NCBI GenBank assembly: GCA_022616665.1
Contig: JAKEFJ010000175.1
Span: 1 to 56,720, forward strand
Source of the DNA: Acidobacteriota bacterium
Lineage (GTDB): Bacteria > Acidobacteriota > Polarisedimenticolia > Gp22-AA2 > AA152
Direction: 5' to 3'
DNA: 56,720 nt
Position 1 is the first letter of the stretch. Every line of letters starts with the position of its first letter. Position numbers and translations under genes: made by a program. Below the pieces are notes generated by a model. The model made no database searches. It saw only the letters and a list, made by a program, of their open reading frames with translations, and was not told the origin of the DNA. Positions 32,400-53,520 of the stretch are shown here, piece by piece.

Positions 32400-34126
32400 T
32401 AGCTCAGCAGCGCATCCACGAAGGCGTCGGCAATCTTTTGCCGGAAGGCGGGATCCGTGAGAGTGCGGGCATCGGCGGGATTGTTGATATTGCAGACCTC
32501 CAAGAGGATCTGCACCGAGACTTCGTTGCAGCGAAGCACTGCGGGGACCCAGGGGCGGGTGCGACGGATGATCCGGTCGCGGACGGGCTGGTAGGGGTGG
32601 ATACGCGCCCCGCGCTGCTTCAAGGCCTTCAGCAGGTGGGCGGCGAACTCCCGGGATAGTCCCTCGGATTTCTGCCTCTGCTCGCGCGTGAAGGAGACGT
32701 GGCTCTTCTCCCGCACCTCCCTTCGCGCCTGGTAGGTGGCCCCGTTGAATCCGTAAGTCTTGGCCCGGTACTTCTCGCCGGGGACGTAGATCATCGTCCC
32801 CCTCAGGCTGGGATGCAGCGAGTCGGCGTGCAGGGAGGCGAAGACGACCTTGTCGGGGTCCACTCCCTTCCTTCGCAGACTTCTCAGATAGGAGTTGGAC
32901 AGATACCAGCGCAGATTGACTCCCACGTCGTTGGGTGCCGAGGAAGCCAGCCGCAGCGGCGGCGTGGTGAGGATCGACTCGGACTGGTTCAGGGGGATGC
33001 CGTGGGTTTCGAAGATTCGGAAGCCGTACTGCGTGTCGCGGATCGTGGTGAGTACCTGGGCCGCCGTGTTCTTTTCCAGCCGGGCCTTGATCCGGCATAG
33101 CACATCATAGACGTAATCGCTCTCCCAGACCCCGTTGCGGGAAGCGCCGATGTCCCGCCCTCCGTGACCGGAGTCCAGGATGACCGTCACCCCTTCCAGG
33201 TCCCGGCTGATGGCCTGGTTCTTGAAGCGCTCCACCTCCCTCCGGCTCAGCTCGAATTCAATGCGCCGCAAATCTCCGGGCGGCAGGAACTCCGGCATGA
33301 TGGAATCGCGGGGGATCTTTACCTGGTATCCCACGGCCAGGCTGCTCACGTCTTCGATGCCGCTGCGCCGGGCCACCAGGCTGGCCATCTGGTTCACCTC
33401 GTCGGCGTCCAGCAATCCGGTAAACCGGACCACGACCGAAGAATAAATCGCTTCGCCCTTCTTGAGCCGGTAGGCACCGTACTCGCCCTGCTCATCCCGG
33501 CCGAAACTTAGATCCCCGGCCTCGGTGGGCGGCACCTGTGCAAAGATTGGCAGTAGCAGCGATCGATGAATCCTCAGGACCCGACCGGAAATTGGAGTCA
33601 GGTCCCGTAGCCCGTTCATCTCAGCGATCGCCTGGAAGTTCTTCCCCTCCCCCGTGAACCAGAGGGCCAGATGCCAGAGGCTCTCGGCCGCCATGGGAAT
33701 TCTCCCTCGGCCCACCGGGTGCAGCCAGTATTCGCCCTCCAGCCGGTCCTCGGGGAAGAGGCGTGCCATGGTCAGGAATTGGTAAGCTTCCCGAAGGTCT
33801 TCATAGGGCACGACCACGTAGCGCTTCGCCGGGCGCTTGGGCTCCTCGGGGTTGAAGGCCTTGACGGTCTCCCAGCGGGCCGGATCCCGCAACACACGGC
33901 GCGCCACGTCCTCGTCGGTATCGGACTTTTGGCGGAGAACCTCCAGGAAGAGCGCGTTTTCTTCACTTAGAAAAATCCGGATTTCCGGGGTCACCTCGAA
34001 GGTCCGCAGGCTCTCGGGGAGCTGGAGCGAGGGACCGGCTGGAGCGGACTTGTCTTCCGAGGAGCGAAGGATGTGAGGCGCCGCCATCAGAATCGCCAAG
34101 ACGGCGAAGAGTAGGCGACGGAGCAT
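32390..34126 (-). CDS. N-acetylmuramoyl-L-alanine amidase (Amidase_3) with a long N-terminal region
   Basis: ILDSGHGGRDIGA ... SLHADS ... zinc-amidase motifs. Start at MLRRLLFAVLAILMAAP (signal peptide). Its 3' end overlaps the DUF885 gene convergently by 10 nt. Confidence 0.8.
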   Translation of the reverse strand: MLRRLLFAVLAILMAAPHILRSSEDKSAPAGPSLQLPESLRTFEVTPEIRIFLSEENALFLEVLRQKSDTDEDVARRVLRDPARWETVKAFNPEEPKRPAKRYVVVPYEDLREAYQFLTMARLFPEDRLEGEYWLHPVGRGRIPMAAESLWHLALWFTGEGKNFQAIAEMNGLRDLTPISGRVLRIHRSLLLPIFAQVPPTEAGDLSFGRDEQGEYGAYRLKKGEAIYSSVVVRFTGLLDADEVNQMASLVARRSGIEDVSSLAVGYQVKIPRDSIMPEFLPPGDLRRIEFELSRREVERFKNQAISRDLEGVTVILDSGHGGRDIGASRNGVWESDYVYDVLCRIKARLEKNTAAQVLTTIRDTQYGFRIFETHGIPLNQSESILTTPPLRLASSAPNDVGVNLRWYLSNSYLRSLRRKGVDPDKVVFASLHADSLHPSLRGTMIYVPGEKYRAKTYGFNGATYQARREVREKSHVSFTREQRQKSEGLSREFAAHLLKALKQRGARIHPYQPVRDRIIRRTRPWVPAVLRCNEVSVQILLEVCNINNPADARTLTDPAFRQKIADAFVDALLSYYA

Positions 34127-34133
34127 CAATGCT

Positions 34134-35609
34134 TCAGGCGTCCAGGGCTTTCGGCCGGTGGTGGGAACGAAAGTCCATCTCCGACTCCAGCGCCGCGGCG
34201 ACACCCAGGAGGCGCGGCTCGGAGAAGGCGGGACCGACGATCTGCGCGCCGATGGGAAGGCCGTCGCGGGCGATCCCGCAGGGGAGTGAGAGGGCGGGGA
34301 TGCCCACGAGATTGATGGTGGCGGTGAATATGTCCGACAGGTACATCTGCAAGGGATCTTCGGTTTTTTCCCCGAATCGGAAGGCCGTGGAAGGGGTGGT
34401 GGGAGTGACGATCAAATCGACCTTCTCGAAGGCCGCATCGAAATCGGCCTTCAGGAGGGTGCGCACCTTTTGAGCCTTGAGGTAATAGGCATCGTAGTAT
34501 CCGGAGCTGAGGACATAGGTCCCCAGCATGATCCGCCGCTTCACTTCCCGGCCGAAGCCCTCCGAGCGGCTCCTGCGGTACATCTCCCCCAGAACGTGCG
34601 CCCCCTCGGCACGGTAGCCGTACCGGACGCCGTCGTATCGAGCCAGGTTTGAAGAGGCCTCCGCGGTGGCCAAGATGTAATAAGTGGGGATACTGAAATC
34701 GGTGTGCGGCAGGGAGAGCTCTTCCACCCGGGCCCCCATGGCCTCGGCCCGGGTCAGCATGGCGCGGACCGCCCCCTCGATCTGCGAATCCAGTCCCGCG
34801 GGAAAGTACTCTTTCGGGACTCCCAGGCGGATGGATCGCAGGGGAGCGGAGAGTTGCGAGGCGTAATCAGGCACCGGCACGCGGGCCGAGGTGGAATCAC
34901 GAGGATCATACCCGGCGATCACCGAGAGGGTGCGCGCCAGGTCCTCCACGGTCTTGCCGAAAGGCCCAATCTGATCCAGGGAAGAGGCGAAGGCGACCAG
35001 TCCGAAGCGGGAGACCCTGCCGTAAGTGGTCTTGAGTCCGGGCACACCGCAGAAGGCAGCAGGCTGTCGGATGGATCCGCCGGTGTCGGTGCCCAGGGAC
35101 ACAGGCGCCATGTCGGCTGCAACGGCCGCCGCCGATCCGCCGCTCGAACCTCCCGGAACCCGGTCGAGGTCCCACGGATTGCGGGTCTTTTCGAATGCCG
35201 AGTTCTCCGTGGAGGAGCCCATGGCGAATTCGTCCATGTTCGTTTTCCCAAGGATGACGGCTCCCGCCTCCTTGAGGCGCCGGATCACGGTGGCATCGTA
35301 GGGGGGAATGAACTTCTCGAGGACTCTCGAGCCGCAGGTCGTGGGGTGGCCCGCCAGGCAGAGGACATCCTTCAGAGCAACGGGCAGGCCCGCCAGGGAG
35401 CCCGGATCCTCACCCCGTGAGAAAGCACCGTCGATGGCCTCGGCGGTGGCGAGTGCTTCCTCCTCAAGAATGCAGCGAAATGCCCGAACTCTCCCCTCGA
35501 CGGCTTTCATTCGCCGCAGGCAGGCCCGGGTGGCCTCCTGTGAGGAGATCTCCCGGGATCGAATGCGGCGCAGGAGCTCGGAGCCTGAGAGGCGAAAGAG
35601 TTCTTCCAT
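34134..35609 (-). CDS. gatA: Asp-tRNA(Asn)/Glu-tRNA(Gln) amidotransferase subunit A
   Basis: Amidase signature GGSSGGSAAAVAA. Start at MEELFRLSGSELLRRI (Met27 of the ORF). Confidence 0.93.
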   Translation of the reverse strand: MEELFRLSGSELLRRIRSREISSQEATRACLRRMKAVEGRVRAFRCILEEEALATAEAIDGAFSRGEDPGSLAGLPVALKDVLCLAGHPTTCGSRVLEKFIPPYDATVIRRLKEAGAVILGKTNMDEFAMGSSTENSAFEKTRNPWDLDRVPGGSSGGSAAAVAADMAPVSLGTDTGGSIRQPAAFCGVPGLKTTYGRVSRFGLVAFASSLDQIGPFGKTVEDLARTLSVIAGYDPRDSTSARVPVPDYASQLSAPLRSIRLGVPKEYFPAGLDSQIEGAVRAMLTRAEAMGARVEELSLPHTDFSIPTYYILATAEASSNLARYDGVRYGYRAEGAHVLGEMYRRSRSEGFGREVKRRIMLGTYVLSSGYYDAYYLKAQKVRTLLKADFDAAFEKVDLIVTPTTPSTAFRFGEKTEDPLQMYLSDIFTATINLVGIPALSLPCGIARDGLPIGAQIVGPAFSEPRLLGVAAALESEMDFRSHHRPKALDA

Positions 35610-35613
35610 GCTT

Positions 35614-35901
35614 CTAGCCGATGACCTTGGGGACCGTGAAGTGCTGGTCCTTCGATTCGGGGGCGTTCGCCAGCGCCTGAGGGACACTCAGAGACCGAAT
35701 CGTGCGGTCCTCCCGCAAGGTCTGCTCCATCCGGGTCACATGGGAGGTGGGCTCGATCCGCGCGGTGTCCAACTCGTTGAGCTTGTCGATGTATCTCAGA
35801 ATGGAATCGAGCTGGCGGGTGAAAAGCTCCAGCTCCTGGTTGGAAAAATCGAGGTTGGCGAGGCGCGCGACGTGGCGGACGGTGTCGATCCCGATTTTCA
35901 T
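35614..35901 (-). CDS. gatC: Asp-tRNA(Asn)/Glu-tRNA(Gln) amidotransferase subunit C
   Basis: 95 aa. MKIGIDTVRHVARLANLDFSNQELELF...; sits directly upstream of gatA. Confidence 0.9.
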   Translation of the reverse strand: MKIGIDTVRHVARLANLDFSNQELELFTRQLDSILRYIDKLNELDTARIEPTSHVTRMEQTLREDRTIRSLSVPQALANAPESKDQHFTVPKVIG

Positions 35902-36039
35902 GAAGTGCGGTTCTCCCCAGAGATTCTCCGCGCGCCGCGCGGCCGGAAGCATAGAGGAAGGGGGAAGAGAATTCAAGAATGCGGCGGAGTGGTTGATGCC
36001 GCTTGACGCCAGGGGAATCGATGGGGAGAATCTCACACC

Positions 36040-36975
36040 GTGCAACCTCCCCGGATTCGAGCTCTTCCAGTCCTCCTGACTCTTCTCTGCCTGTCCACGC
36101 TCTCACCGAGTGCCGAGGAGGGAGGCGTCTCCCCGGCCATGCCGATCGACCTCACCGTGGAAATTCTCAAGGTGGGGCCAGGCGGCACCGAGACCCTCGC
36201 GACCGACCAGGCGAGGGTGTTTTTGGGAAAGGGGGCGCTGCTGGCTCGAGACGTGACCCTGATGGGGAGATCGCCGTTGAAAGAGCCTCTGACCGAAAAG
36301 CTCCGGCTGCGCGCCGAGCTCCGGCCGTTGGGGGTGACGCAGGCCGGCCTCGCTCTCGTGTTGAAGTCGAAGGTCCAGGTCCTGGCTCTGAGCGGCAGCG
36401 GCCAGATTCCCCGCGGGGACATCACCCGGAGCCTCAACCTGGAAATTGCCCAAGGCGCCTCCGAGCTGGTCACCGTCTACGAATCCCCGCCCCTGGATAC
36501 GAAGGTGACGCTCCATGTGAAGTGGAGCCTGGCGGAGGATTCGGAGGCTCCGGGTGCTGATCCGACCCAGGTGGCGCTCATCGCCCGGGTGTTCGAAGTG
36601 GGTGACTCGGGAGAGACCCTGCTGGCCGATCACCGATTGGTGGCGGTTGTGGGGCACCCTGCTTCCACGACCGTCGACCGCCTCGTGCCTCTTCCAGGAA
36701 ATGAGCCGAAGAAGGTACGCCAGGATCGGTTGGAAATCACCCTTGTGCCCCTCACCCTCTCGGGTCGAAACCTGAGCCTGTCGTTGGAGGTGAGCGGGGA
36801 AATCGCGACCCTGACTTCAGAGGGGAACCAGTCCCATCCCCTGGCCCACCAGGGAAACTACCTGCTGTCCCCCGGAGTTCCGGAGGGTGCCGAGCTGGAG
36901 GTCCGCTCCGGTTCAGCCGGCAAGGAGGGCTGGCTCCGAGTCCGTTTTCGGATAGAAATCACGGCGCTTTTTTGA
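36040..36975 (+). CDS. Hypothetical secreted protein with tandem internal duplication
   Basis: GTG start. Signal peptide ALPVLLTLLCLSTLSPSAEE. Two ~130-aa beta-rich halves share a VG..GETL.A...RL...PL...L.L.L pattern. Ends ...RFRIEITALF. Confidence 0.55.
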   Translation: MQPPRIRALPVLLTLLCLSTLSPSAEEGGVSPAMPIDLTVEILKVGPGGTETLATDQARVFLGKGALLARDVTLMGRSPLKEPLTEKLRLRAELRPLGVTQAGLALVLKSKVQVLALSGSGQIPRGDITRSLNLEIAQGASELVTVYESPPLDTKVTLHVKWSLAEDSEAPGADPTQVALIARVFEVGDSGETLLADHRLVAVVGHPASTTVDRLVPLPGNEPKKVRQDRLEITLVPLTLSGRNLSLSLEVSGEIATLTSEGNQSHPLAHQGNYLLSPGVPEGAELEVRSGSAGKEGWLRVRFRIEITALF

Positions 36976-37007: not shown

Positions 37008-37036
37008 TTGACATAGCTTGCTGACTCAATTAAGGT
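37008..37036 (+). promoter_or_regulatory. Candidate sigma70-type promoter (TTGACA-N17-TAAGGT) ahead of the barrel/kinase/regulator module
   Basis: Hexamers at 37008-37013 and 37031-37036, within a locally AT-richer spacer. Confidence 0.35.
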
Positions 37037-37213
37037 AAGCGCTCGTCTGAGCGGCCGAAACCTTTCGATTTTGTTCCGATCCATTCGAGAGGTTCCAACC
37101 TGCACAAAGGCTTTCAACTCCTCGGGCTTCTAGCCCTCCTTCCGGCGGTCCTTCTATATCCGGCGAGCGCGGCGGCAGCGCAGGCTGAAACACCCCTGCT
37201 GGGACTTGGTGTC

Positions 37214-39157
37214 GTGCGGGACAGGCTGGGCCGAGGCCTCCCCGGCGTGGAAATCGTCGTATTCTCCCTAGGCACCACAGCCAGCGCCCCCCTTGCCATC
37301 CTACTTACTGATGATCGCGGGCGCTTCAGCCTCGAGGGAATCGGTTCGGGGAACTTCCTGTTGGCCTTGAACAAGCCCGGGTATCCCGTCCGTCTGGCCC
37401 AGGCCAACAGCCGCCTCCTCTCGCTGCTTCAGATCCAGCTTGGGCCCGATGTGAATCCGGCGCTGGGGGAGAACTCTTCGAGCGACTCGATGGATTGGGT
37501 CCTTCGGCTGCCTCGCACCGACATCTTGAAGGAGGAGGATCCTCAGGTCCCGGAGCCGTTCGTCTCGCACGACGGGGGAGGCGGCAAGACAGGCTTCACA
37601 GGTTCCGGATCCCCACCCATCGCACTGGAAACTGGCCGGCTTCCGGTGAGCGGCGAGGTGAACCAGTGGTATACCTCCAGTCTTGCCGGAATGGGTGGGA
37701 GCCCCCAAGCGCCAGGATCCAGCGGCCGAGCCACCACGGTCCAGGTAGCAGGGGATCTCCTGGGACGGGGCGACTGGGAGGTTCGCGGCCTGGCCGAAAG
37801 CCTCAGCACCGAAGGAGCAGCCTTGGGAGGATTCGTGAGCGATCAGGGAGCCAACCGGTTGCGGGTCGCAATGCGATACAAGGTCTCTCCCGAGGATTCC
37901 GTTCAGGTCCAGGCTCGCTTTGATCGCGACAGTTATCGCGCGGATGGAGAATCCGAGGCCTTCGCACCCTCCAGTCAGGCGGTTCGAACCTTGGGGTACC
38001 AGGCCAACTGGACACGCAACCTGGGGAAGGACAGCGGCCTGCAAGTGGCCACGGGCTTTATCCACGCCCAGGCGAGCGTCCCTTGGGACGTCGAAGCGGG
38101 AAGCGGGTCGGGTGAGCGGGGGGACGAACTTCGGGATTGGCACTGGAACGCCCAGGCTGGTTATCGCCTGCAGCTCCCGCGGGCGCATCGCCTCTCCCTG
38201 GCAGCCCGGACTCGAGTCTATAACTACGATCAACGCGACGCCGGGTGGATTTTGGCTCCCATCCGTCCGGACCTCTCCATGCTGGACTCCGGTCAGCGAG
38301 GCTGGGGGCTGTCGTTGTCTGGAGAAGATACCTGGCAGTTGTCCCAGCCGGTCAGCTTGATCCTGGGCCTCGACACCCACGTCTCCGAAGGAATGGATCG
38401 CAATGTCATTCTGGTCCCAAGGATCGGGGCCCGGAAGCAGGGAGAGCAATCCACCCTGCAAGGGTGGGTTCTCGTCCGAACCGACAACCTTGGATCTGAT
38501 TCCCGCCAGGGCGGGTTCATCGGACGGGGAGCCACGGAATCCGAGACTCTGGGCTTCCGAGCAGAGATCCTCCAGAGATTCCAGGGGAACTGGGTGGTGG
38601 GCGGGCACGTCGAGCGCAATCCACTCGGTGCCTCCGCCATCCTGAGCCAGCCTGGAATCTCCGATCCCTCCACTCCGGAGGTGATGCTCATCACTGATCC
38701 GTCCGCCTGGTCCCAGGAGGCCGGTTTCTCGGTATCCAAGAGCCTGAAAGGGGTGGAGGGGAGCCTCGAGTCGGATCACGGTCGGGTCGTGGGGAGAATG
38801 GCTGGCGGTCTGACCGAGGCCCCGGTGCTGGTTCTGGAAGAGGGGGGAGTTAGGTACCTGGCGGTGAAGGTTACCGCCAATGTCCAGAAGACCGATACCC
38901 AGGTGCGTCTGGACTACACGCACCTGACGGAAACGGAAGTTGACGAGACAGCGGGGACGGCGCTGAGCGCTTCACGGGTCGACGTGGTGATTCTGCAGCC
39001 CATTCCTTTTGTGTCCAATCGTGGTGCTGGCGCATGGAGGATTCTCCTGGGATTCCAGTCGCTCTCCCGGGGCCCGGGTTCGGGAACCGAGCCTCTGGAG
39101 AATGCGATGCCGGAGAAGATCAACCGATTCAGCGGCGGCGTGGGGGTGAGCTTCTGA
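37214..39157 (+). CDS. CarboxypepD_reg-like domain protein with a putative plug-less outer-membrane beta-barrel
   Basis: GVEIVVFSLG...TDDRGRFSLEGIGSGNFLLALNKPGY (CarboxypepD_reg-like), then many amphipathic beta-strand-like segments. Ends GGVGVSF (terminal Phe, OMP beta-signal-like). The frame stays open upstream to 37034 and encodes a signal peptide, so the true start may be CTG 37100 (see findings). Confidence 0.7.
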   Translation: MRDRLGRGLPGVEIVVFSLGTTASAPLAILLTDDRGRFSLEGIGSGNFLLALNKPGYPVRLAQANSRLLSLLQIQLGPDVNPALGENSSSDSMDWVLRLPRTDILKEEDPQVPEPFVSHDGGGGKTGFTGSGSPPIALETGRLPVSGEVNQWYTSSLAGMGGSPQAPGSSGRATTVQVAGDLLGRGDWEVRGLAESLSTEGAALGGFVSDQGANRLRVAMRYKVSPEDSVQVQARFDRDSYRADGESEAFAPSSQAVRTLGYQANWTRNLGKDSGLQVATGFIHAQASVPWDVEAGSGSGERGDELRDWHWNAQAGYRLQLPRAHRLSLAARTRVYNYDQRDAGWILAPIRPDLSMLDSGQRGWGLSLSGEDTWQLSQPVSLILGLDTHVSEGMDRNVILVPRIGARKQGEQSTLQGWVLVRTDNLGSDSRQGGFIGRGATESETLGFRAEILQRFQGNWVVGGHVERNPLGASAILSQPGISDPSTPEVMLITDPSAWSQEAGFSVSKSLKGVEGSLESDHGRVVGRMAGGLTEAPVLVLEEGGVRYLAVKVTANVQKTDTQVRLDYTHLTETEVDETAGTALSASRVDVVILQPIPFVSNRGAGAWRILLGFQSLSRGPGSGTEPLENAMPEKINRFSGGVGVSF

Positions 39158-41982
39158 TGAAGCCCGGGACAATCGGAGCCCTGATTCCTGCCCTTCTGCT
39201 GGCTATTCTGGGATTATTGAGTTTCCTGAATCGCGCCGCTTCGCTGCACGGCGAAGACGGGGTGATTTGGGCGAGCCGAGGGCGAGGTTTGGAGGCAGCG
39301 TCCATCCAGGCAGGAAGTCCCGCGGACATCGCCGACATCAAGAGGGGAGATCAGCTCATCAGCATCGCTGCGGTCGCTCCCTCCGCCACTCGCAGCGTTC
39401 GAGAATTGCTCTGGGGGCGTGCCGGGCTTCCGACGCCTTATAAGGTCCTGAGGGGAAACCAGCGCCTGGATCTGGAGGTTCTCCCCCGGTCTGATGGGGA
39501 GGAAAATCGCCTCTATTACTTCCTCTTTATTGTGGGGGCGGCGGCTCTCGTGGCGGGCAGCCTGGCTCTGGTGAAGCTCCCCTCAGAGCACGCAGCACTC
39601 GTGCTTTACGGCCTCTGCCTCGCTTTCTTCTCGCTGCTGGCGCTCTCTCCCGGGGGAAACGCCCGAATCCTCGACTGGATTTTCTACTGGGGCGATCTGG
39701 CGGGACGACTTCTGCTTCCCCCCTTGATCGTCCATTTTGTCCTGGAGCTCTCCGAGCCGGTCCCACGCTTGGGCGCCGGCACCGGCCGGCGTATCTGGCT
39801 GTATGCGCCGGCGATACTCCTGCTGGGAGTGGCCGTCTACCTGATTCCGCTCAAGGGGGCCCTCGCCTTCTCCGAACCGACCCACGCCATTCGCCTGAAA
39901 GACCGCTTGGAGCTTTTTTACCTGGGGCTCTACACCGTCCTGGCGGTTTCGACCCTCTTCGCCAGACTCTGGAGCTGTACGCGTGCCGCAACGCGGTGGC
40001 GGCTCAGATGGGTGGCGGCCTCAGCTGCGGCGGGCCTGTTGCCGCTCTGCCTCCTGTATCTCCTCCCGGTCGCGCTGGGAGTTCCGGCAGGAGCGCTGGG
40101 CGAACTGTCCGTGCTCCCGCTGGCGATCGCCCCCCTGGGTTTCACGGCGACACTGTTTGAGGAGCGGGCGGTGGATTTGGATCGCTCGCTGCGGGCAGCG
40201 GTGCGCTGGGCCGTGGTCGGGGCTGTTTTTCTGGCTGGGGGCGCGGCCTGCTCCCGGCTCCTTTCGTTCCTGCCGGGTGGAGCGTCTTCGGGGGGGATTC
40301 TCGCCGAGGTCAGCTTCCCGCTGCTCATTTCCGGTGCTCTGGCGGTACTTTTCTACCGTTTCCTGGGGAGCAAAGTGGACCGCTTGCTTGGCAGGCGGCC
40401 GGCAGCGACTTCCCGCCTGCTGCTCGAGCTGGGCGAGGACATTAACGGAGAGGTCCGGCTGGAGCCGCTCGCCAAAAAGCTGGTCTCGCGACTGGCGTCG
40501 CAGTTCGGAGTCGATCCGGTTCTGTTGCTGGTGGAGGGGCCGGGTGAGGGGATTTTTCTTCCCGCACGGGGATCGACCCATCTGTCGAATCAGCCTATGC
40601 GCTGGAGCTTTTCGGACCAGGAGGCTCGTGAGCTCTCGACGAAGGAGATGGTGCTCCTGGGCGACGCAGGGGCGGAGCTTCCGTCGGCCGCGAGGGAGGA
40701 AGCTCGAAAAGCGGGATTTCGGTACGTCTTCCCCATGGTCGTTCGAGGCCAAATGCGCGCTCTGCTGCTGAGTGGCCCGCGCCGCGACTGCTCCGCCCTG
40801 GAGGGAGAGGATCTGGACGCCATGGCGGCCCTCGCTTCACAGGCCGCCAAAGCCGTTGAAGCGGCTCGCCTGTACCGGGAGATCGAGGAAAGAAGTCGCC
40901 GTGAAGAGCAGCTCCGTCGCCAGACCGAGGCCATTTTGCAGTCCAGCCGGATCGGAATCCTGCTCTGTGACGCCGCGGGGAGGATCACGGCAGCCAACCT
41001 TGCGGCCGCCAGGATACTCGGTCATCCTGTTCCCATCGGGGCCGGGGTGGGAGCGATGCTTCCCAAAGGATTGCTCATGCTGCTGGATCGGTCCGTCCGT
41101 GATGTCCGGCGAGGCGGGTCGGGGGAGCGGGTCTTCCGCTTCTCCCTGGGTCGCGCCGATGGAAAGATCCGAGTGATCAACGCCAGCCGCTCCTACCTGG
41201 GCGGAGACCCCTTATCCGGGGTGGTTTACACACTGGACGATGTCTCCGAAGAAGTCCGACGAGAGGAGAGCATGGTTCACCACGACCATCTGGCGGAGTT
41301 GGGCTTGCTGGCCTCGCAAGTGGCTCACGAGGTGAATACGCCGCTGGCCGGCATTGCCAGCTACGCCCAGCTGTTGATGGCCCGGATGAAATCTCGGATT
41401 CCCGAGATGGAGCTGCTGAAGAAGATCGAGAGCCAGGCAGTGCGCGCCGCGGGAATCGCCGGCTCCGTGCTCAACTTTGCCCGAAGGAAGGACGAGGAGC
41501 CCGCCCAGGAATTCGACCCCGGTGCGGTCATTGCAGAGAGTCTGGCCTTGTTCGAGCCCCAGCTCAAAGGAAAACGAATCCGGCTCTCCATGGAGCGGGC
41601 GCCGTCCCTCCCCATGATCCGGGGACATCGCGGCAAAGTGCAGCAGGTGATCTTGAATCTACTGATGAACGCGGCCCAGGCGCTTCCCTCCGGCGGAGAG
41701 ATTCGGCTGGCGCTGGACCGGGATGGTGAATCGGTGCGAATACGGGTTTCCGACAGCGGTATCGGCATCCCCTCCGCCAGCCTCCCCAGGATCTTCGAGC
41801 CCTTTTTCACCACGCGCTCCGACGGCAAGGGAACCGGGTTGGGACTGTCCGTGGTACAACGGATCGTCCTCGAGCACGGCGGCACGATTCAGGTGGAGAG
41901 TGTTGAGGGTGCCGGCAGCACCTTTACCGTGTCCCTCCCTGCGGCACAGATCCCTGTCGGCGAGGTTGCCCGTGGAGCTTAA
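39157..41982 (+). CDS. Multi-TM sensor histidine kinase with an N-terminal PDZ domain (predicted periplasmic), PAS, HisKA and HATPase_c
   Basis: ATG overlaps the upstream stop by 1 nt (TGATG). TM1, then PDZ (GSPADIADIKRGDQLISI), then about 9 further hydrophobic helices, PAS-like ILLCDAAGRITAANLAAARILG, H-box LASQVAHEVNTPL, and N/G boxes (LLMNAAQA, DSGIGIP, GTGLGLS). Confidence 0.87.
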   Translation: MKPGTIGALIPALLLAILGLLSFLNRAASLHGEDGVIWASRGRGLEAASIQAGSPADIADIKRGDQLISIAAVAPSATRSVRELLWGRAGLPTPYKVLRGNQRLDLEVLPRSDGEENRLYYFLFIVGAAALVAGSLALVKLPSEHAALVLYGLCLAFFSLLALSPGGNARILDWIFYWGDLAGRLLLPPLIVHFVLELSEPVPRLGAGTGRRIWLYAPAILLLGVAVYLIPLKGALAFSEPTHAIRLKDRLELFYLGLYTVLAVSTLFARLWSCTRAATRWRLRWVAASAAAGLLPLCLLYLLPVALGVPAGALGELSVLPLAIAPLGFTATLFEERAVDLDRSLRAAVRWAVVGAVFLAGGAACSRLLSFLPGGASSGGILAEVSFPLLISGALAVLFYRFLGSKVDRLLGRRPAATSRLLLELGEDINGEVRLEPLAKKLVSRLASQFGVDPVLLLVEGPGEGIFLPARGSTHLSNQPMRWSFSDQEARELSTKEMVLLGDAGAELPSAAREEARKAGFRYVFPMVVRGQMRALLLSGPRRDCSALEGEDLDAMAALASQAAKAVEAARLYREIEERSRREEQLRRQTEAILQSSRIGILLCDAAGRITAANLAAARILGHPVPIGAGVGAMLPKGLLMLLDRSVRDVRRGGSGERVFRFSLGRADGKIRVINASRSYLGGDPLSGVVYTLDDVSEEVRREESMVHHDHLAELGLLASQVAHEVNTPLAGIASYAQLLMARMKSRIPEMELLKKIESQAVRAAGIAGSVLNFARRKDEEPAQEFDPGAVIAESLALFEPQLKGKRIRLSMERAPSLPMIRGHRGKVQQVILNLLMNAAQALPSGGEIRLALDRDGESVRIRVSDSGIGIPSASLPRIFEPFFTTRSDGKGTGLGLSVVQRIVLEHGGTIQVESVEGAGSTFTVSLPAAQIPVGEVARGA

Positions 41983-42376
41983 GGGCGTGGTGCTCGCCTT
42001 CATCCTGACCGGAGCGCTGGGAGCCCTGCCGGCGCGAGCCGGATCCCAGGATCGTGCGGATGAGCTGGCGGGCCCGACTCCGGGAGGAATTACGGGCAGG
42101 GTGATGGATGGGCGGGGCGGACCCCTTTCGGGCGCGAAGGTGGTCCTGCACCGGGGAGAGTTTTCCACTACCACGCGGACCGATGAACAAGGGGAGTACT
42201 GCTTCTGCAGGGTCAAGCCGGCCCGCGACTATGTCTTCGAAATTGAAATGGACGGGTTCGCCGGATTCATCGAAAGGGACTTTACCGTGGCGAGAACCAG
42301 GCTCTCGATCCGCAACGTCATTCTCGAGCCGCTCTCCAGCTTCCGATCCGAGCCCGGAAAAGAGGAATCGCCTTGA
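41972..42376 (+). CDS. Small secreted CarboxypepD_reg-like domain protein
   Basis: GTG 41972 (TTG 41966 is an alternative) overlaps the kinase stop. Signal peptide VVLAFILTGALGALPARAGSQ, then ITGRVMDGRGGPLSGAKVVL...TDEQGEYCF...KPARDYVFEIEMDGF. Its stop overlaps the regulator start (TTGA). Confidence 0.6.
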   Translation: MELKGVVLAFILTGALGALPARAGSQDRADELAGPTPGGITGRVMDGRGGPLSGAKVVLHRGEFSTTTRTDEQGEYCFCRVKPARDYVFEIEMDGFAGFIERDFTVARTRLSIRNVILEPLSSFRSEPGKEESP

Positions 42377-43791
42377 GCGGACCGAGCCCGGTGACGCCCA
42401 ACCACCGCGCCAGGATTCTGGTGGTGGAAGACGAGAGTGTCTTTCAGGAAGTCCTGTCCGGCCTTCTTCAGGAAGCGGGTTACCAGCCGACGGTCGCAGG
42501 TTCCGCGGAAGAGGCCCTGGGTTTGCTCGATCGGGACAGTTTTGATCTCCTGGTTATCGACCTGATGCTCCCTGGCGCCGGTGGGCTGGAGCTTCTCCGG
42601 GCGGTCAAGGGCCGGGATCCGGACCAGATGGCAGTCGTGATCACCGCGTTTGGCTCGGTGGAATCGGCGGTGCAGGCCATGAAGGAAGGAGCGTTCCATT
42701 ACCTGACGAAGCCCTTCCGTCACGAGGAGGTGCTGCTCACGGTTCGCAACGCCCTGGGCCAGCGTAACCTGCTTTCGGAGAATCGCACTCTGCGGAGGGC
42801 GCTCTCGTGGCGCGCCCGGGATAACGAGCTGGTGGGGAAAAGCCGTCCGATCCAGGAGCTGCAGAGCATGCTGGACCGGATCGCGCCGACCCGCAGCACC
42901 GTGCTCATTCAGGGGGAGAGTGGCACGGGGAAAGAGCTGGCTGCGCACGCGATTCATCATCGCAGTCCCCGCTCGCATCGTCCTTTCGTGGTCGTGAATA
43001 GCGGCAGTGTGCCGGCGGAGCTCTTGGAGAGCAATCTCTTCGGCCACCGCAAGGGGGCCTTCACGGGAGCGGTGGCAGCCAAAAAGGGGCTCTTCGAAGT
43101 CGCCGACGGCGGATCCTTATTCTTCGACGAGATCAGCTCCATTCACCCGGAGGTTCAGTCGAAGCTCCTCAGGGTGATCCAGGAGCGGGAGTTTCTCCCA
43201 CTGGGGGCCGTGGAGAGCGTGCGGGTGGATGTGCGGATCATCACTGCCACGAACATCGACCTGAAGGAGCTTGTGGAACGGGGACTGTTCCGGGAAGATC
43301 TCTTCTATCGCCTCAATGTCATCGTGGTGAATCTGCCTCCCTTGCGGGATCGGCGCGAAGACATCCCCCTTCTGGCGGACCACTTCCTGCGACGATTCGC
43401 CGAAGAGAACGGCAGGCCAGTCCCCGAGATCAAGCCAGAGGCCATGTTGGCTCTGACCCGCCACACATGGCCGGGAAACGTTCGCGAGCTGGAAAACCTC
43501 CTGGAGCGGGCCGTCGTACTGGGAAACGGGAGCGCCATCGGCTTGGAACTGCTCCCGGAGGAGATTCACCCCGGGGAAGCCGCCCCGTCCGACATTCCGG
43601 CAAAGGAGAGCGTCTCCGGTGAGTTTTCCTACGCTCAAACCATTGCTAGCTTTGAGCGGGAGCTGATTGAGCAGACCCTCCACAGGGCCCATGGGGTCCA
43701 GCGGAGGGCTGCGAGGCTATTGGGAATCAAACCCACGACCCTTAACGAGAAGATCAAGAGGTTGGGGATTCGTTCCCCCCGCCTCCCGTAG
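42373..43791 (+). CDS. Sigma54-dependent response regulator (NtrC family: REC-AAA+-HTH)
   Basis: ILVVEDE...DLLVIDLMLPG receiver, GESGTGKE Walker A, GAFTGA sigma54-contact loop, LFFDEI, C-terminal Fis-type HTH (AARLLGIKPTTLNEKIKRLGI). Confidence 0.92.
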   Translation: MSGPSPVTPNHRARILVVEDESVFQEVLSGLLQEAGYQPTVAGSAEEALGLLDRDSFDLLVIDLMLPGAGGLELLRAVKGRDPDQMAVVITAFGSVESAVQAMKEGAFHYLTKPFRHEEVLLTVRNALGQRNLLSENRTLRRALSWRARDNELVGKSRPIQELQSMLDRIAPTRSTVLIQGESGTGKELAAHAIHHRSPRSHRPFVVVNSGSVPAELLESNLFGHRKGAFTGAVAAKKGLFEVADGGSLFFDEISSIHPEVQSKLLRVIQEREFLPLGAVESVRVDVRIITATNIDLKELVERGLFREDLFYRLNVIVVNLPPLRDRREDIPLLADHFLRRFAEENGRPVPEIKPEAMLALTRHTWPGNVRELENLLERAVVLGNGSAIGLELLPEEIHPGEAAPSDIPAKESVSGEFSYAQTIASFERELIEQTLHRAHGVQRRAARLLGIKPTTLNEKIKRLGIRSPRLP

Positions 43792-43833: not shown

Positions 43834-43861
43834 TTGACATCCACTCTTATAGACGTAATAT
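43834..43861 (+). promoter_or_regulatory. Candidate sigma70-type promoter P1 (TTGACA-N16-TAATAT)
   Basis: Consensus -35 at 43834-43839 and TAATAT at 43856-43861, in an AT-rich intergenic island. Confidence 0.4.
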
Positions 43862-43932
43862 ACCTTCAGGTGGTGGGAGTAATTATTCAGACGGTCCCCG
43901 TAACTTGCTGTCGCCGTTTCTCTTATTGGGAA

Positions 43933-43962
43933 TTGACAGGCGCGGGTCCGGGCCGATAAAAT
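43933..43962 (+). promoter_or_regulatory. Candidate sigma70-type promoter P2 (TTGACA-N18-TAAAAT)
   Basis: Consensus -35 at 43933-43938 and TAAAAT at 43957-43962. About 120 nt upstream of ATG 44081, which has a GGAGG SD 8 nt upstream. Confidence 0.4.
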
Positions 43963-44080
43963 GCCAATTCTCAAAAGATAGTGATGATGAAGGCAGGAGA
44001 GCCCCCCGGGGGGAGGGCTGCTTCACCAGGGGCGTGAGAGTTCGTCCCCATCCACTTCGTGAAGTCCGGAGGTAGTTCTC

Positions 44081-47000
44081 ATGGTCAGTGGCAGGGCCAA
44101 ACGTCTCGCCGGTTTCTTTTCCGTAATCCCCGTAATCCTCTGCATCTCCTCCCTCTCCGGTTTCTCCCAGACCACGCCGGGGACCGTGAAAGGGGTCGTT
44201 GTCGACAAGGAGGGGAGCCCTCTCCCGGGCGCCACGGTCACCCTGGAAAACAAGGCCATGGCAATTGTGGGGCTGGGAGGTGTCACGAACGCCCAGGGGG
44301 AGTTCCGGATCACGCCTGTGGCACCCGGCAAAGGGTACGCCCTTCGAGTGAGCCTGCCCGGGTACCAGAAGATTGAGTTCACCCTCGAAGTCTATTCGGG
44401 AAAGACCATCGTCCAGAACGTCACCTTGCGCGAGGCGATGACGGAGCGGGTACAAGTGCAAGGCAAAACGGATGTGGTCAACACCGAGTCGACCCAGATC
44501 AGCACCACGATCACCTCCGAGTTCATCTCCGGCCTCCCGGTTCTGGGAACCGATTATCAGGATGTCCTGACGCTGGCGCCAGGCGTGACCGACGTGAACA
44601 ATACCGGAAACCCCAACATCCACGGTGCCCGGGACACCGACGTGGTGACCCTCGTGGACGGAGTGAGCACCACCGATCCTTTCGACGGCCATTTCGGTCA
44701 GAACCTCAACACCGAATCGATCGAAGAGATCGAGGTCATCACCTCCGGCGCAGGCGCTCAATTCAGCCGGGCCCAGGGAGGATTCGTCAACATCGTCACC
44801 AAGTCCGGCGGCAACGAGTTCAAGGGTACCTTCACCTTTCAAATGCGCACCAACAAGCTGGATGGCGACGGAGCGGGAGTGGATCGGTCGGAATTGCGCG
44901 GAGGCCTCGGTGAGACCGATGGGTTCCGGGACCTGGAGTTCACGAATCTTTCCCCCTACCTGTCCCTCTCCGGAGCTATCGTCAAGGACCATCTCTGGTA
45001 CCTCTTCGCCCCCGAGTACATTCAGGAGGAATTTCCAGTCAACGCCGGAACTCAGGCGTATGTCCAGACCCTCACCGACACTCGGGTCACCGCTAAGCTG
45101 ACCTGGCAGGTCAGCTCCAATAACAAGTTGGCGCTCATCGGCATTATGGATGACCAGGAATTCAACAATCAGGGACTGGATAGCCGCATCGACCTCGGAT
45201 CGGGTTTCACGTTCGAACGAGGCGGGCCGACCCTGACCCTTCAGGACACGGCCATTTTCACTCCGACCTTTTCACTGGAATCCACCATCTCCCGGTTCGA
45301 CCAGACGGTCAAGCGGACCCCGACCGTCAATCCGGACACCAATGGAAACGGCATCCTCACCGTGGACCACATTAAGTCGCTGGGCGGCAACGGGGACGGA
45401 TTCGTGCAGCTCCGGGAAAGCGTCGACGCTGGAGAGGATTTTGATCATGACGGCCGATGGGACGTCTTCGAGGATACCGAACCTAAGCCAAGAGGACGTG
45501 ACGGAAAGCTGAACTGTACGGACGATCCGATCACCGGGGAGCCCATCTGCCCAGAAGATCGCGACGGTGACGGACGGCTGACCGGAGCTTTCGGCTGCGA
45601 GGGGCCCAATCGGGAAGACATCAACTGTAACGGATCCGTTGATCGCGAGATTGATCTCGACGGGGATGGAAGATTGGATCTCGGCGTGGCTGACCTTAAC
45701 GGTGACGGTGTCTTTGAGACGGACCTTGACGGTGACGGTGACTTTCGTCCTAACGAGGACACTGGGATCCCTTGCCTTAACCCGTCCATCTGTCCCGGAC
45801 GAGTCGAGCTGATGCGTGGCTGCCTTGACCCCGCCACATGCAGCACCGCGGGCAACGGGAGATTCGACACCGAGGACCTGAACGGCGATTTTGTAATCAA
45901 CGACACCCCCTTTCCGAACTGGAATGACGCCAACCTCAACGGCATTCCGGAACGGGGCGAGTTTACGGCCCCTCTGGGTGCAGATCAGCCTTATGTCCTG
46001 GACTTCAGAAGCCTTCGAATCACGGGGCCGTACTTTCGGAATTACTCGGACAGTCGCACCCGGGATAGCCTCAGGGAGGATCTCTCGTACTACATTGATG
46101 ACCTCTTCGGGAGCCATGACCTCAGGATGGGAATGTCGGTGGAGTTTGAGGGCTATGAGGCAACCAACGATCTTCGCCCCGTCTGGCAGTCGAGACCCGG
46201 CGACCTCGCCAACAGCGCGGGTGAGGTCGGGGGAATCCTCTCCGCCGCCCTGCCCACCACACAGTCGGCCACCAACTCGGCCACCAGCGACAACCTCGGA
46301 CTCTATTTCAACGATACCTTCAAGCCGCTCCCCAACCTGACCCTCGGCCTTGGAATCCGGTTCGATCGCGAGCAGGTGAGCTCCCAGGGCTATACTTTCT
46401 TCGACCCGCTCGCCGAAGCGGGAGAGTACGTGAATCTTCTTAACATCGCCGGCCAGGAACACCTGCAAGGGGATCTGAACAACGATGGCATCAAAACAGC
46501 GGGATTGAGAAATGGGGACCCCCTGTATTCGGGAAACAATGTCTCTCCCATCGATACGCTTAAGAATCGCCCGGAAACCCTCTCCTCGGACCTGAATAAT
46601 GCGGCAGGCGTGCGCCTGACCCGGCACAACGTCGAGAGTGTCATCCAGAGCACTTTCATCGAGAACTCCAACATTCTCAAAAACGGGCACCCGCGAACCC
46701 CCGAAGACATCGACATCACCAACAACAACCTGGCGCCGCGGATCAGCGTCTCCTGGGATCCCTGGGCCGATGGCAAGAGCAAGGCCACGGCCACCTGGGG
46801 GCGCTTCTACGACAAGCTCTTCCTCCAGACCGTCATCGGCGAGGAGGGCCCCGACTTCTTCACGCAGTACTATCGCCTGGACATCGACGGAGTGGACGGG
46901 GACGGATTGCCCAACAACTTCGTGGGGGCGTCAATCTCCAAGGCGCCTCCCTCGGCGTCCCAGGTGGATCGCAATCTGAAGACTCCCTACACCGACGAAT

Positions 47001-47917
47001 TCACCATCGGTTTCCAGAGGGAGATCGCCCCCGAGATGAGCGTTTCCATCAATTACATTCAGAGGAAGTTCCAAGACCAGCTCCAGGACATCGACGTGAA
47101 CCATACCACCCGCAAACACGGCGTCAATGGCGCCTCCTGCGACGTAGTGACGGTGTCCGGCTATTGCGATAAGATTGGAATGACCATCGACGCCCCGCCC
47201 ACCGGGACCGGCGGCGAAGCCGGAACGGGCCGCACGGATGAGAGGATCGGGGACAGTTACCCGGATCTCTACATCCTCAATCCGAATTTCAACCAGATCT
47301 TCCGCGTGGGAAACTACAACCTCCAAGACTACAACGCCGTCGAGTTGCAATTCGTTCGCCGGTTGAGCCGGAAGTGGCAGATGGATGCGAGCTATGTCTT
47401 CTCCAAGGCCACGGGGCAGGCAGACTCGTTCAATTCGGAAAGCGGCGACGACCCCGCCCTCACCGAGTTGAGGTATGGATATCTGGAATTCGATCAGCGC
47501 CACGTGGCGAAGTTCTTCGCCACGGCCTACCTTCCAGGTGATTGGAGAATCGGTGGTGGGATCACCTGGTCTTCGGGCCTTCCCTATTCCAATGTGAACC
47601 GGTTCGTGGCGGGCGACAACGTGGACTTTGCGCAGATCAGGCGCCTCTACGGCTACAAAGACTTGAATACCGGGAAATTCTACGACGAGGACAGGAACAC
47701 ACACCGAAACCCCGCTGCCTACTCCATCGACGTTCGGACCGAAAAGCAGTTCGTGATGGGAAAGGTCTCGTCCGGAGCGTTCTTCGAAATCTTCAACCTC
47801 CTCAACACCGATGATCTCCGGGTAACGGAAATCGATAATCGCGCCCGCTCACTGCAGTCCGTGGAGACCAGGGACTTCGGCAGGCGATTCCAGTTCGGGA
47901 TCAAGATGAACTTCTAG
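44081..47917 (+). CDS. Giant TonB-dependent-receptor-like outer-membrane protein (CarboxypepD_reg + plug + barrel) with an Asp-rich insert
   Basis: 1278 aa. Signal peptide, GTVKGVVVDKEGSPLPGATVTL (CarboxypepD_reg), plug (LAPGVTDVNNTGNPNIHGARDTDVVTLVDGVSTTDPF...EIEVITSGAGAQFSRAQGGFVNIVTKSG), long barrel, C-terminal beta-signal RFQFGIKMNF. Confidence 0.88.
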   Translation: MVSGRAKRLAGFFSVIPVILCISSLSGFSQTTPGTVKGVVVDKEGSPLPGATVTLENKAMAIVGLGGVTNAQGEFRITPVAPGKGYALRVSLPGYQKIEFTLEVYSGKTIVQNVTLREAMTERVQVQGKTDVVNTESTQISTTITSEFISGLPVLGTDYQDVLTLAPGVTDVNNTGNPNIHGARDTDVVTLVDGVSTTDPFDGHFGQNLNTESIEEIEVITSGAGAQFSRAQGGFVNIVTKSGGNEFKGTFTFQMRTNKLDGDGAGVDRSELRGGLGETDGFRDLEFTNLSPYLSLSGAIVKDHLWYLFAPEYIQEEFPVNAGTQAYVQTLTDTRVTAKLTWQVSSNNKLALIGIMDDQEFNNQGLDSRIDLGSGFTFERGGPTLTLQDTAIFTPTFSLESTISRFDQTVKRTPTVNPDTNGNGILTVDHIKSLGGNGDGFVQLRESVDAGEDFDHDGRWDVFEDTEPKPRGRDGKLNCTDDPITGEPICPEDRDGDGRLTGAFGCEGPNREDINCNGSVDREIDLDGDGRLDLGVADLNGDGVFETDLDGDGDFRPNEDTGIPCLNPSICPGRVELMRGCLDPATCSTAGNGRFDTEDLNGDFVINDTPFPNWNDANLNGIPERGEFTAPLGADQPYVLDFRSLRITGPYFRNYSDSRTRDSLREDLSYYIDDLFGSHDLRMGMSVEFEGYEATNDLRPVWQSRPGDLANSAGEVGGILSAALPTTQSATNSATSDNLGLYFNDTFKPLPNLTLGLGIRFDREQVSSQGYTFFDPLAEAGEYVNLLNIAGQEHLQGDLNNDGIKTAGLRNGDPLYSGNNVSPIDTLKNRPETLSSDLNNAAGVRLTRHNVESVIQSTFIENSNILKNGHPRTPEDIDITNNNLAPRISVSWDPWADGKSKATATWGRFYDKLFLQTVIGEEGPDFFTQYYRLDIDGVDGDGLPNNFVGASISKAPPSASQVDRNLKTPYTDEFTIGFQREIAPEMSVSINYIQRKFQDQLQDIDVNHTTRKHGVNGASCDVVTVSGYCDKIGMTIDAPPTGTGGEAGTGRTDERIGDSYPDLYILNPNFNQIFRVGNYNLQDYNAVELQFVRRLSRKWQMDASYVFSKATGQADSFNSESGDDPALTELRYGYLEFDQRHVAKFFATAYLPGDWRIGGGITWSSGLPYSNVNRFVAGDNVDFAQIRRLYGYKDLNTGKFYDEDRNTHRNPAAYSIDVRTEKQFVMGKVSSGAFFEIFNLLNTDDLRVTEIDNRARSLQSVETRDFGRRFQFGIKMNF

Positions 47918-47936
47918 CCGTTCCAGGACTTGAGCG

Positions 47937-47966
47937 AAAAGGGGGGTCGAGGCCCCCCTTTTTTTT
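47937..47966 (+). terminator. Rho-independent terminator after the giant receptor gene
   Basis: AAAA-GGGGGG-tcgagg-CCCCCC-T8. Confidence 0.8.
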
Positions 47967-53260: not shown

Positions 53261-53335
<75 letters not shown>

Positions 53336-53445: not shown

Positions 53446-53520
53446 GGCGGCGTAGCCAAGCGGTAAGGCAGAGGTCTGCAAAACCTCCATACATCGGTTC
53501 AATTCCGATCGCCGCCTCCA
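53446..53520 (+). tRNA. tRNA-Cys (anticodon GCA), CCA encoded
   Basis: Acceptor GGCGGCG/CGCCGCC, anticodon stem GAGGT/ACCTC with loop CTGCAAA, T-arm ATCGG-TTCAATT-CCGAT, discriminator T, CCA. Confidence 0.9.

Follow-up and report, generated by a model that had tools for sequence, protein, structure and literature searches.

We describe a signalling unit of Acidobacteriota found in a contig of 56,720 nucleotides (nt) from a Polarisedimenticolia genome (GenBank assembly GCA_022616665.1, contig JAKEFJ010000175.1), the whole of which we call the window. Four genes lie there at 37100-43791, encoding an outer-membrane barrel (gene 1), a sensor histidine kinase with a PDZ domain (gene 2), a small exported protein (gene 3) and an NtrC-type regulator (gene 4). 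The trio of barrel, kinase and regulator is an uncharacterised signalling unit that is widespread in Acidobacteriota, and gene 3 is an accessory added to it. We read the locus as a three-component envelope-signalling module to which a fourth, accessory gene would have been added in the window's clade, and we give a probability of roughly 45% to the idea that the envelope signals to the kinase through the periplasmic part of the barrel, which would then act as an outer-membrane co-sensor. Acidobacteriota rank with the most abundant bacteria of soils, and the way they sense their surroundings is little studied. We found the module in at least 155 species-level genomes, and no part of it bears a curated name. 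Its features in the window are the following, with lengths and protein positions in amino acids (aa).

37100..39157, + strand: gene 1, exported, plug-less, TonB-transporter-like outer-membrane barrel (predicted), 685 aa, signal peptide at aa 1-27
37202..37441, + strand: N-terminal CarboxypepD_reg domain of gene 1 (immunoglobulin-like, hereafter Ig-like), aa 35-114, predicted periplasmic, from Pfam and from the structure model (predicted local distance difference test score, pLDDT, ~90)
37490..37537, + strand: linker motif of gene 1, DWVLRLPRTDILKEED, aa 131-146, candidate contact site from conservation in 136 sequences
37646..39154, + strand: predicted 22-stranded beta-barrel of gene 1, aa 183-685, from model and fold match, with the beta-signal-like tail SGGVGVSF
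39155-39159, + strand: junction of genes 1 and 2, TGATG, with stop TGA at 39155-39157 and start ATG at 39157
39157..41982, + strand: gene 2, sensor histidine kinase, 941 aa, with one transmembrane segment, PDZ, about nine further transmembrane segments, GAF, PAS, HisKA and HATPase_c
39244..39495, + strand: predicted periplasmic PDZ domain of the kinase, aa ~30-113, a weak PDZ_6 match that is significant in orthologues
39670..39696, + strand: LDWIFYWGD motif of the kinase, aa 172-180, from kinase alignments, in the loop between transmembrane segments 3 and 4 that is predicted to face the periplasm
41972, + strand: junction of genes 2 and 3, a GTG that precedes the kinase stop TAA (41980-41982) by 11 nt and opens a reading frame with a signal peptide
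41972..42376, + strand: gene 3, exported single-domain CarboxypepD_reg protein, 134 aa, clade-specific accessory
42373-42376, + strand: junction of genes 3 and 4, TTGA, with start TTG at 42373 overlapping stop TGA at 42374-42376
42373..43791, + strand: gene 4, NtrC-family sigma-54 enhancer-binding response regulator, 472 aa, from Pfam and motifs

To collect relatives of the module, one genome per species was scanned with an alignment of the kinase sensor region and the pattern L[DS]W[IVS][FLG]YWGD, which gave 155 confirmed relatives. Gene order was surveyed in the best 80 of these 155 loci through hidden Markov model (HMM) searches of six-frame open reading frames (ORFs). Almost all of the 80 are labelled Acidobacteriota (Vicinamibacterales, Polarisedimenticolia and gp22), and in nearly every one barrel, kinase and regulator follow each other in this order on one strand; the exceptions are contig ends, frameshifts and a few insertions (L041, L076 and L081). 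A check in the reverse direction, from four arbitrarily picked barrel homologues (P0060, P0047, P0065 and P0118), found a PDZ kinase after the barrel in all four cases, and barrel homologues that are only ~23% identical still have a PDZ kinase next to them. Barrels of this family were met almost only beside such kinase sensors, and vice versa, and in the loci examined we have so far seen no case of the two genes occurring apart. A distant kinase homologue, that of L004, stands in another context, near genes for enolase, a cyclase and glycosyltransferases, yet it too follows a CarboxypepD_reg barrel and precedes an NtrC-type regulator, the small protein being absent. The preliminary description of this DNA had presented the four genes as one module whose gene order should persist in relatives. 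This holds for barrel, kinase and regulator, which are kept in two classes, but not for the small protein, which HMM searches of the loci recovered only in the window, L001, L003 and L007.

The genomic surroundings put this linkage in perspective. L001-L003 match the window in gene order throughout the region (gatCA, Amidase_3, DUF885, the large TonB receptor and cysS are all in place), so that synteny in these three loci alone says little. Vicinamibacterales loci are flanked by genes for enolase, a cyclase and glycosyltransferases, whereas those of the window's lineage have gatCA, Amidase_3, DUF885 and cysS; the clustering of flanks was confounded by ORFs in overlapping frames and we use it qualitatively only. 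The insertions mentioned above are rare and of 1.3-3.7 kb (L041 12805-14189, L076 4044-5385, L081 5180-8921), and the inserted DNA separates either the regulator from the kinase or the kinase from the barrel. A locus of the Vicinamibacterales type also occurs in five metagenome bins with unexpected labels: L022 and L086 (Bifidobacteriaceae), L028 (Betaproteobacteria), and L034 and L066 (Acidimicrobiia). Errors in the binning or labelling of acidobacterial contigs, rather than transfer, probably account for these five.

Reading the junctions in the sequence confirms the earlier view of a co-directional unit on the + strand in which each gene overlaps the next; in L001 and L003 too, the genes overlap in this manner at three of three junctions. 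Stop/start overlaps are common in operons, so these are not unusual by themselves. The coupled, stoichiometric expression that had been deduced from them does not extend to Vicinamibacterales, where barrel and kinase genes are 150-300 nt apart.

The start of gene 1 is a CTG codon at 37100, 7 nt after a Shine-Dalgarno sequence, GAGAGG (37087-37092). No ATG, GTG or TTG is found in its frame before 37214, and translation from 37100 yields a typical signal peptide. The codon aligned with it in L003 is non-canonical too (of the CTG/ATH class) and follows the same SRG-coding stretch; the conserved 'SRGSN' upstream of the start (window 37034-37102) probably reflects conservation of the ribosome-binding site. 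The database entry for this protein (P0001) is cut to 598 aa, a truncation that leaves the signal peptide and some of the first domain out of sight. Gene callers have set the N-termini of gene 1 homologues very differently. In Pfam, gene 1 matches CarboxypepD_reg (PF13620) at aa 37-96 with an E-value of 1e-4, under the family cut-off. By inspection, genes 1 and 3 both carry N-terminal signal peptides, in line with the export first attributed to them.

Word-indexed searches for homologues returned 28 barrel matches and 7 kinase-sensor matches and wrongly suggested a tiny family; a third such search, with a mixed alignment, added nothing useful. By exhaustive profile search, the gene 1 family comprises at least 150 clusters at 50% identity (E<1e-30), most of them of 640-715 aa and matched by the profile over their full length. 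Phe is the last residue in 118 of 119 full-length members, in tails such as SGGVxVxF, and in 72 of the 77 barrels of our loci, which fits the beta-signal pattern of the beta-barrel assembly machinery (BAM). An AlphaFold2 model built from an alignment of 136 sequences reached a pLDDT of 81.8 and a predicted template-modelling score of 0.72, an earlier model from 25 sequences (pLDDT 43) having been unusable. It comprises an Ig-like domain (aa 35-114), a disordered segment (aa 119-178) and 22 long antiparallel strands (aa 183-684). The top Foldseek matches of this model in the PDB are all TonB-dependent transporters (E 5e-11 to 1e-7, TM-score 0.35-0.47) and include Cir, PfeA, FepA, BtuB and BT1762-type SusC structures. 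As modelled, gene 1 is thus a 22-stranded outer-membrane barrel of the TonB-dependent-transporter fold, and the model and the terminal Phe both agree with its initial designation as an outer-membrane protein.

The barrel has no recognisable plug: neither gene 1, at E<=0.01, nor the precomputed Pfam lists of its homologues contain a match to Plug (PF07715). About 65 mostly disordered residues separate its first domain from the first strand, and the neighbouring receptor does match Plug. By eye, no canonical TonB-box-like sequence is seen in gene 1, and the linker motif differs from known boxes. Searching PDB sequences with the barrel profile gave Ig-like domains only and no match for the barrel; in NCBIfam neither the barrel nor gene 3 has any match.

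Where is this family most conserved? Over the 136 sequences, the two most conserved stretches of 15 residues are both predicted to be periplasmic. The first lies in the Ig-like domain (aa 81-95); the second is the linker motif WVLRLPRTDILKE (aa 132-146), within a linker that is poorly conserved on either side of it. Trp133 is present in 100% of the sequences, Leu135 in 95%, Arg136 in 93% and Pro138 in 91%. The motif has the form WxLRxPRxxxLKE; in the distant barrels of Vicinamibacterales it reads WRLRHxKRSxLKD, where a loose pattern finds it in 67 of 77, and it is kept even in barrels only ~21% identical.

Gene 2 is a two-component sensor histidine kinase of the HisKA/HATPase_c class. Its HisKA (E 1.4e-9) and HATPase_c (E 9e-30) matches are both above Pfam cut-offs, and the H-box AHEVNTPL and the boxes DSGIGIP and GTGLGLS can be read in the translation. 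Hydropathy indicates ten transmembrane segments, one before the PDZ region and about nine after it, a topology that would make the PDZ domain periplasmic and the GAF-PAS-HisKA-HATPase part cytoplasmic. The PDZ_6 match of the window's kinase is weak (E 1.6e-3, 18.6 bits for a cut-off of 27), and the L001, L004 and L087 orthologues have a significant match to PDZ_6 or PDZ_2; the PDZ of the L004 kinase is closest to those of HtrA, DegP and DegS. The LDWxFYWGD motif is invariant in kinase alignments, its position in a loop being that given by the hydropathy topology. The PDZ had been taken for the only extracytoplasmic domain of the kinase. It is the only folded one predicted in the periplasm, but about nine more transmembrane helices and the periplasm-facing LDWIFYWGD motif accompany it. 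A survey of microbial PDZ proteins lists PDZ-bearing kinases only as a ComP-type family (PMC6411480).

Gene 4 is a complete NtrC-type sigma-54 activator. Pfam recognises Response_reg (85 bits), Sigma54_activat (220 bits, E 2e-65), AAA_lid_14 and HTH_8, and the GAFTGA loop, the Walker A sequence GESGTGKE and the receiver Asp are all present in the translation. Its best NCBIfam matches are AtoC, NtrC and ZraR, none of which reaches the equivalog cut-off. Pfam thus supports the domains initially assigned to all four genes, partly via weak matches for genes 1 and 2.

Gene 3 matches Pfam CarboxypepD_reg with an E-value of 1.8e-12. As read from the translation, its signal peptide ends in ARA/GS, and no lipobox Cys was found in it. 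The protein is 31% identical (E 8e-11) to the N-terminal domain of the 1278-aa TonB receptor encoded nearby. We rejected the possibility that it is a copy of the N-terminal domain of gene 1 (E 2.9). Because it is similar to the receptor domain and not to that of gene 1, gene 3 looks like a recently recruited free copy of the former, and the neighbouring receptor is the likely donor.

The expression signals of the module differ between lineages. Upstream of gene 1 in the window, alignment brings out one promoter-like element:

37008..37036, + strand: sigma-70-type promoter of the module, TTGACA (37008-37013), 17-nt spacer, TAAGGT (37031-37036)

Both hexamers are kept in the window, L001, L002 and L003. 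The element scores under the threshold of a simple consensus scan. This TTGACA-17-TAAGGT element is the presumed promoter of the module in the window's clade. No credible intergenic sigma-54 promoter was found in the window. The recurring sequence TGGCAYATCGAGTGCT was dropped as a candidate site: it lies inside cysS and reflects coding conservation. Matches to the palindrome TCCA-N6-TGGA, which in the window occur only within coding regions, are uninformative.

In Vicinamibacterales, the gap of 150-300 nt between barrel and kinase contains a canonical sigma-54 element of the -24/-12 type (for example TGGTATATCGTTTGCT or GGGAACGGCGTTTGCT) at ~55-110 nt upstream of the kinase start (L013-L086; for instance L032 9868-9883). 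A sigma-54 weight matrix gives 56 matches at or above 16 bits, every one of them within 450 nt upstream of a kinase start and none elsewhere in ~1.5 Mb. Upstream of the -24/-12 element, examination of 52 regions gave 21 occurrences of TCCA-N6-TGGA, with 11 at ~-117, and an exact match to the consensus of integration host factor (IHF) stands at ~-37 in six regions, with looser variants seen by eye in many more. Where all three occur, the -24/-12 element, the IHF-like site and the palindrome have, on sequence grounds, the standard layout of an enhancer-dependent promoter. From this layout upstream of the kinase we infer autoregulation: the Vicinamibacterales regulator would activate its own kinase-regulator operon. 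The promoter is absent from the window's clade, where barrel and kinase genes overlap.

How might an outer-membrane barrel act on a sensor kinase? The pairing of the two families, the conservation of the periplasmic part of the barrel and the presence of a PDZ domain on the kinase together argue for a physical link between the two proteins. The barrel would be an outer-membrane co-sensor whose Ig-like domain and WxLRxPRxxxLKE motif make a putative contact with the PDZ domain or the periplasmic loops of the kinase. A change in the barrel, whether by binding of a ligand in its lumen or by perturbation of the outer membrane, would alter this contact and set the activity of the kinase, which would phosphorylate the regulator and so turn on sigma-54 promoters, in Vicinamibacterales including that of the kinase-regulator pair itself. 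In the window's clade, the whole unit of overlapping genes would be expressed from a single sigma-70-type promoter, and the free Ig-like protein of gene 3 might modulate the kinase or compete for the same contact, in a manner comparable to that of QseG with QseE. The complete chain would be a previously undescribed form of cell-surface signalling, carrying a cue from the outer membrane or the cell's exterior and running from a plug-less barrel through the Ig-like domain and linker motif to the PDZ domain, the kinase and sigma-54 instead of an extracytoplasmic function (ECF) sigma factor, with gene 3 as modulator; we advance it more tentatively than the co-sensor role alone.

Several observations weigh against the co-sensor reading. 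The adjacency of the genes is also expected if the barrel merely admits a solute that the kinase senses, and what closes a plug-less 22-stranded barrel is left without explanation. For the window's own kinase, the PDZ match stays under the Pfam cut-off, and the 56.7-kb window offers no sigma-54 promoter or regulator-site candidate. The sigma-54 matrix was trained on the sites it recovers, although a generic consensus had located these sites before the matrix was built. Finally, collinearity within lineages means that the linkage represents essentially two or three independent genomic contexts and not 155.

Could the barrel instead be a dedicated diffusion channel, with the kinase sensing the admitted solute or oligomer through its PDZ or membrane domain and never touching the barrel? 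In its favour, SusC-like transporters that naturally lack a plug and serve small substrates have been proposed in Bacteroides, and an engineered plug deletion remained functional (bioRxiv 10.1101/2025.11.13.688124). A barrel of transporter fold in which the plug is absent suits it, and so do the separate promoters of the barrel and the kinase-regulator pair in Vicinamibacterales. However, a substrate-specific channel is not expected to be most conserved in a periplasmic domain and a linker motif, and catabolic or inner-membrane uptake genes accompany the module in neither lineage. PDZ domains, moreover, bind peptides and proteins rather than small solutes, and we consider the channel unlikely. 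We are just as sceptical of a DegS-like surveillance of assembly, in which the kinase PDZ would bind the exposed ..GGVGVSF tail of unassembled barrels or other outer-membrane proteins and induce a sigma-54 envelope-stress regulon, the barrel being a sentinel. The nearest relatives of the L004 PDZ are those of HtrA, DegP and DegS, the barrel family conserves its tail with Phe at the end, and the activation of DegS by the C-termini of outer-membrane proteins is established. Any BAM substrate has such a tail, however, so that no PDZ is needed to explain it, and surveillance leaves unexplained both the absence of a plug and the conservation of an Ig-like domain and linker motif in the periplasmic part of a mere sentinel. 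A link of sigma-54 with control of the cell exterior (PMC3162934) would also fit surveillance.

A third alternative is that an ordinary NtrC-type two-component system lies by descent only beside an unrelated outer-membrane protein gene, with no functional link. Within each lineage the region is indeed collinear, housekeeping genes included, and stop/start overlaps are of the common kind. Yet the trio persists across two lineages whose flanks differ completely, the kinase remains next to even the ~23% identical barrel homologues, and the barrel and kinase sensor families are almost always seen in each other's company. We regard this explanation as very improbable.

The preliminary description knew of no characterised system with this composition, and we found nothing in the literature on this gene combination. 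The statement holds for the parts, but the order of genes 2, 3 and 4 is that of qseE-qseG-qseF in E. coli, a characterised three-component system in which the accessory QseG controls QseE via its periplasmic part (PMC6075780). The likeness of QseE/QseG/QseF (GlrK/GlrR) lies in the succession of a kinase, a small exported protein and an NtrC-type sigma-54 regulator, in an accessory located at the outer membrane or periplasm, and in an envelope-linked sigma-54 output (PMC6075780). According to the same source, qseEGF is not autoregulated, whereas the Vicinamibacterales module appears to be. The proteins themselves differ: QseG is a lipoprotein and gene 3 a CarboxypepD_reg domain without a lipobox; QseE has a simple periplasmic loop where gene 2 has a PDZ domain and about ten transmembrane helices; and qseEGF lacks the barrel gene that this module has. 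With 334 bits for a cut-off of 763, gene 4 is not an orthologue of GlrR.

Other envelope-signalling systems share one part or another. QseE/QseG/QseF and FecA-type surface signalling come nearest to the module, which is a member of none of the families compared here. Like FecA-FecR-FecI, the module has a 22-stranded barrel with an extra N-terminal periplasmic domain, an adjoining inner-membrane signalling protein and a dedicated activator that uses an alternative sigma factor. The extra domain of FecA-type proteins is STN, however, and that of gene 1 is CarboxypepD_reg, in a barrel with neither plug nor recognisable TonB box; the partners of FecA are an anti-sigma factor and an ECF sigma factor, in contrast to the histidine kinase and sigma-54 enhancer-binding protein found here. 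No gene for an anti-sigma or ECF sigma factor was found in the module by Pfam or the locus survey. SusC-like and Oar-like transporters, among them the window's 1278-aa receptor, share with gene 1 the N-terminal domain family and the barrel fold, but they measure 1000-1300 aa, compared with ~685 aa for gene 1, which has ~65 residues before the first strand and no Plug match.

In ZraP-ZraS-ZraR and CpxP-CpxA-CpxR a periplasmic accessory modulates a sensor kinase, and ZraR, like gene 4, belongs to the NtrC-type sigma-54 activators. In NCBIfam, genes 2 and 4 have ZraS and ZraR among their best matches, at scores that fall short of equivalog status (161 for a cut-off of 479 bits, and 374 for 760). 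These systems have no barrel or PDZ domain, while our module has no protein of the ZraP/CpxP family. The DegS/RseP branch of the sigma-E pathway also combines a periplasmic HtrA-type PDZ domain on an inner-membrane protein with an outer-membrane protein ending in Phe, but it works by proteolysis of an anti-sigma factor, unlike gene 2, which would pass its signal by phosphotransfer and has no protease domain. PrsK/PrsR (TIGR02916/TIGR02915), of PEP-CTERM/exosortase systems, were also considered and rejected: gene 4 scores 366 bits against PrsR for a cut-off of 503, PrsK is not among the best 25 of the 86 matches listed for gene 2, and the L004 kinase reaches 35 of the required 300 bits. All scores for PrsK/PrsR, ZraSR, GlrKR and AtoSC are under the curated cut-offs, and we reject orthology with any of them.

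If the barrel does signal to the kinase, Gram-negative bacteria would have an additional trans-envelope route, made of a transporter-derived barrel, a phosphorelay and sigma-54. This would give a function to the CarboxypepD_reg extension borne by very many TonB-dependent transporters, as well as to the PDZ domains of sensor kinases, a listed family in the PDZ survey (PMC6411480). The module would then serve soil Acidobacteriota as a signalling device throughout the lineage, with gene 3 as its clade-specific modulator. The candidate sigma-54 promoter before the Vicinamibacterales kinase could be used directly as a reporter of the pathway.

On either side of the module, the window contains further genes for secreted or outer-membrane proteins:

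36040..36975, + strand: flanking secreted protein of 311 aa, internally repeated, unmatched in Pfam and NCBIfam
43834..43962, + strand: two tandem sigma-70-type promoters of the receptor, TTGACA-16-TAATAT and TTGACA-18-TAAAAT, outside the core module
44081..47917, + strand: Oar-like TonB-dependent receptor of 1278 aa with CarboxypepD_reg, Plug and OMP_b-brl_4 (Pfam)

The 311-aa protein has a signal peptide and two similar halves; what had been described as a duplicated secreted protein upstream is in fact this single protein with its internal repeat. Homologues occupy the same position in L001-L003, L007, L009, L011, L012 and L087, and the gene is probably a separate transcription unit. An ORF on the + strand at 35308-36006, antisense to gatA/gatC, is probably spurious. 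In Vicinamibacterales, a secreted protein of 370 aa is encoded directly upstream of the barrel and on the same strand (70 loci; L004 6757-7869), with no clear Pfam match and a faint Ig-like match at its C-terminus. The 311-aa and 370-aa proteins are not homologues by any detectable relation (hhalign probability 0.5%). The upstream secreted protein may be a fourth, lineage-variable component. An Amidase_3 gene (N-acetylmuramoyl-L-alanine amidase; window 32390-34204, - strand) and gatCA are found near the module in L001-L003, L087 and L089, a proximity that may be plain synteny rather than a functional link.

The Oar-like receptor, first noted as a giant TonB-type receptor flanking the module, does lie downstream of it in the window and in L001, L003, L008-L011 and L087, but it accompanies the module in the Polarisedimenticolia/gp22-type lineage only and not in Vicinamibacterales. 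Its two sigma-70-type promoters are conserved in L001 and L003. We considered the receptor as a sigma-54 target and dropped the idea, given these conserved promoters and the lack of a sigma-54 promoter. Its leader of ~120-220 nt (window 43834-44080) contains the palindrome CCCCCCGGGGGG, also present in L003; an Rfam scan matched only two tRNAs and nothing in this leader. A terminator-like hairpin stands at 47936-47963, past the receptor gene. The two tRNA genes (53261-53332 and 53446-53517) precede a second Oar-like TonB receptor at ~53.5-56.72 kb on the + strand, a paralogue of the first (phmmer E 2e-293) that continues past the end of the window. The minus-strand ORF listed at 53962-56712 is probably an antisense shadow of this second receptor.

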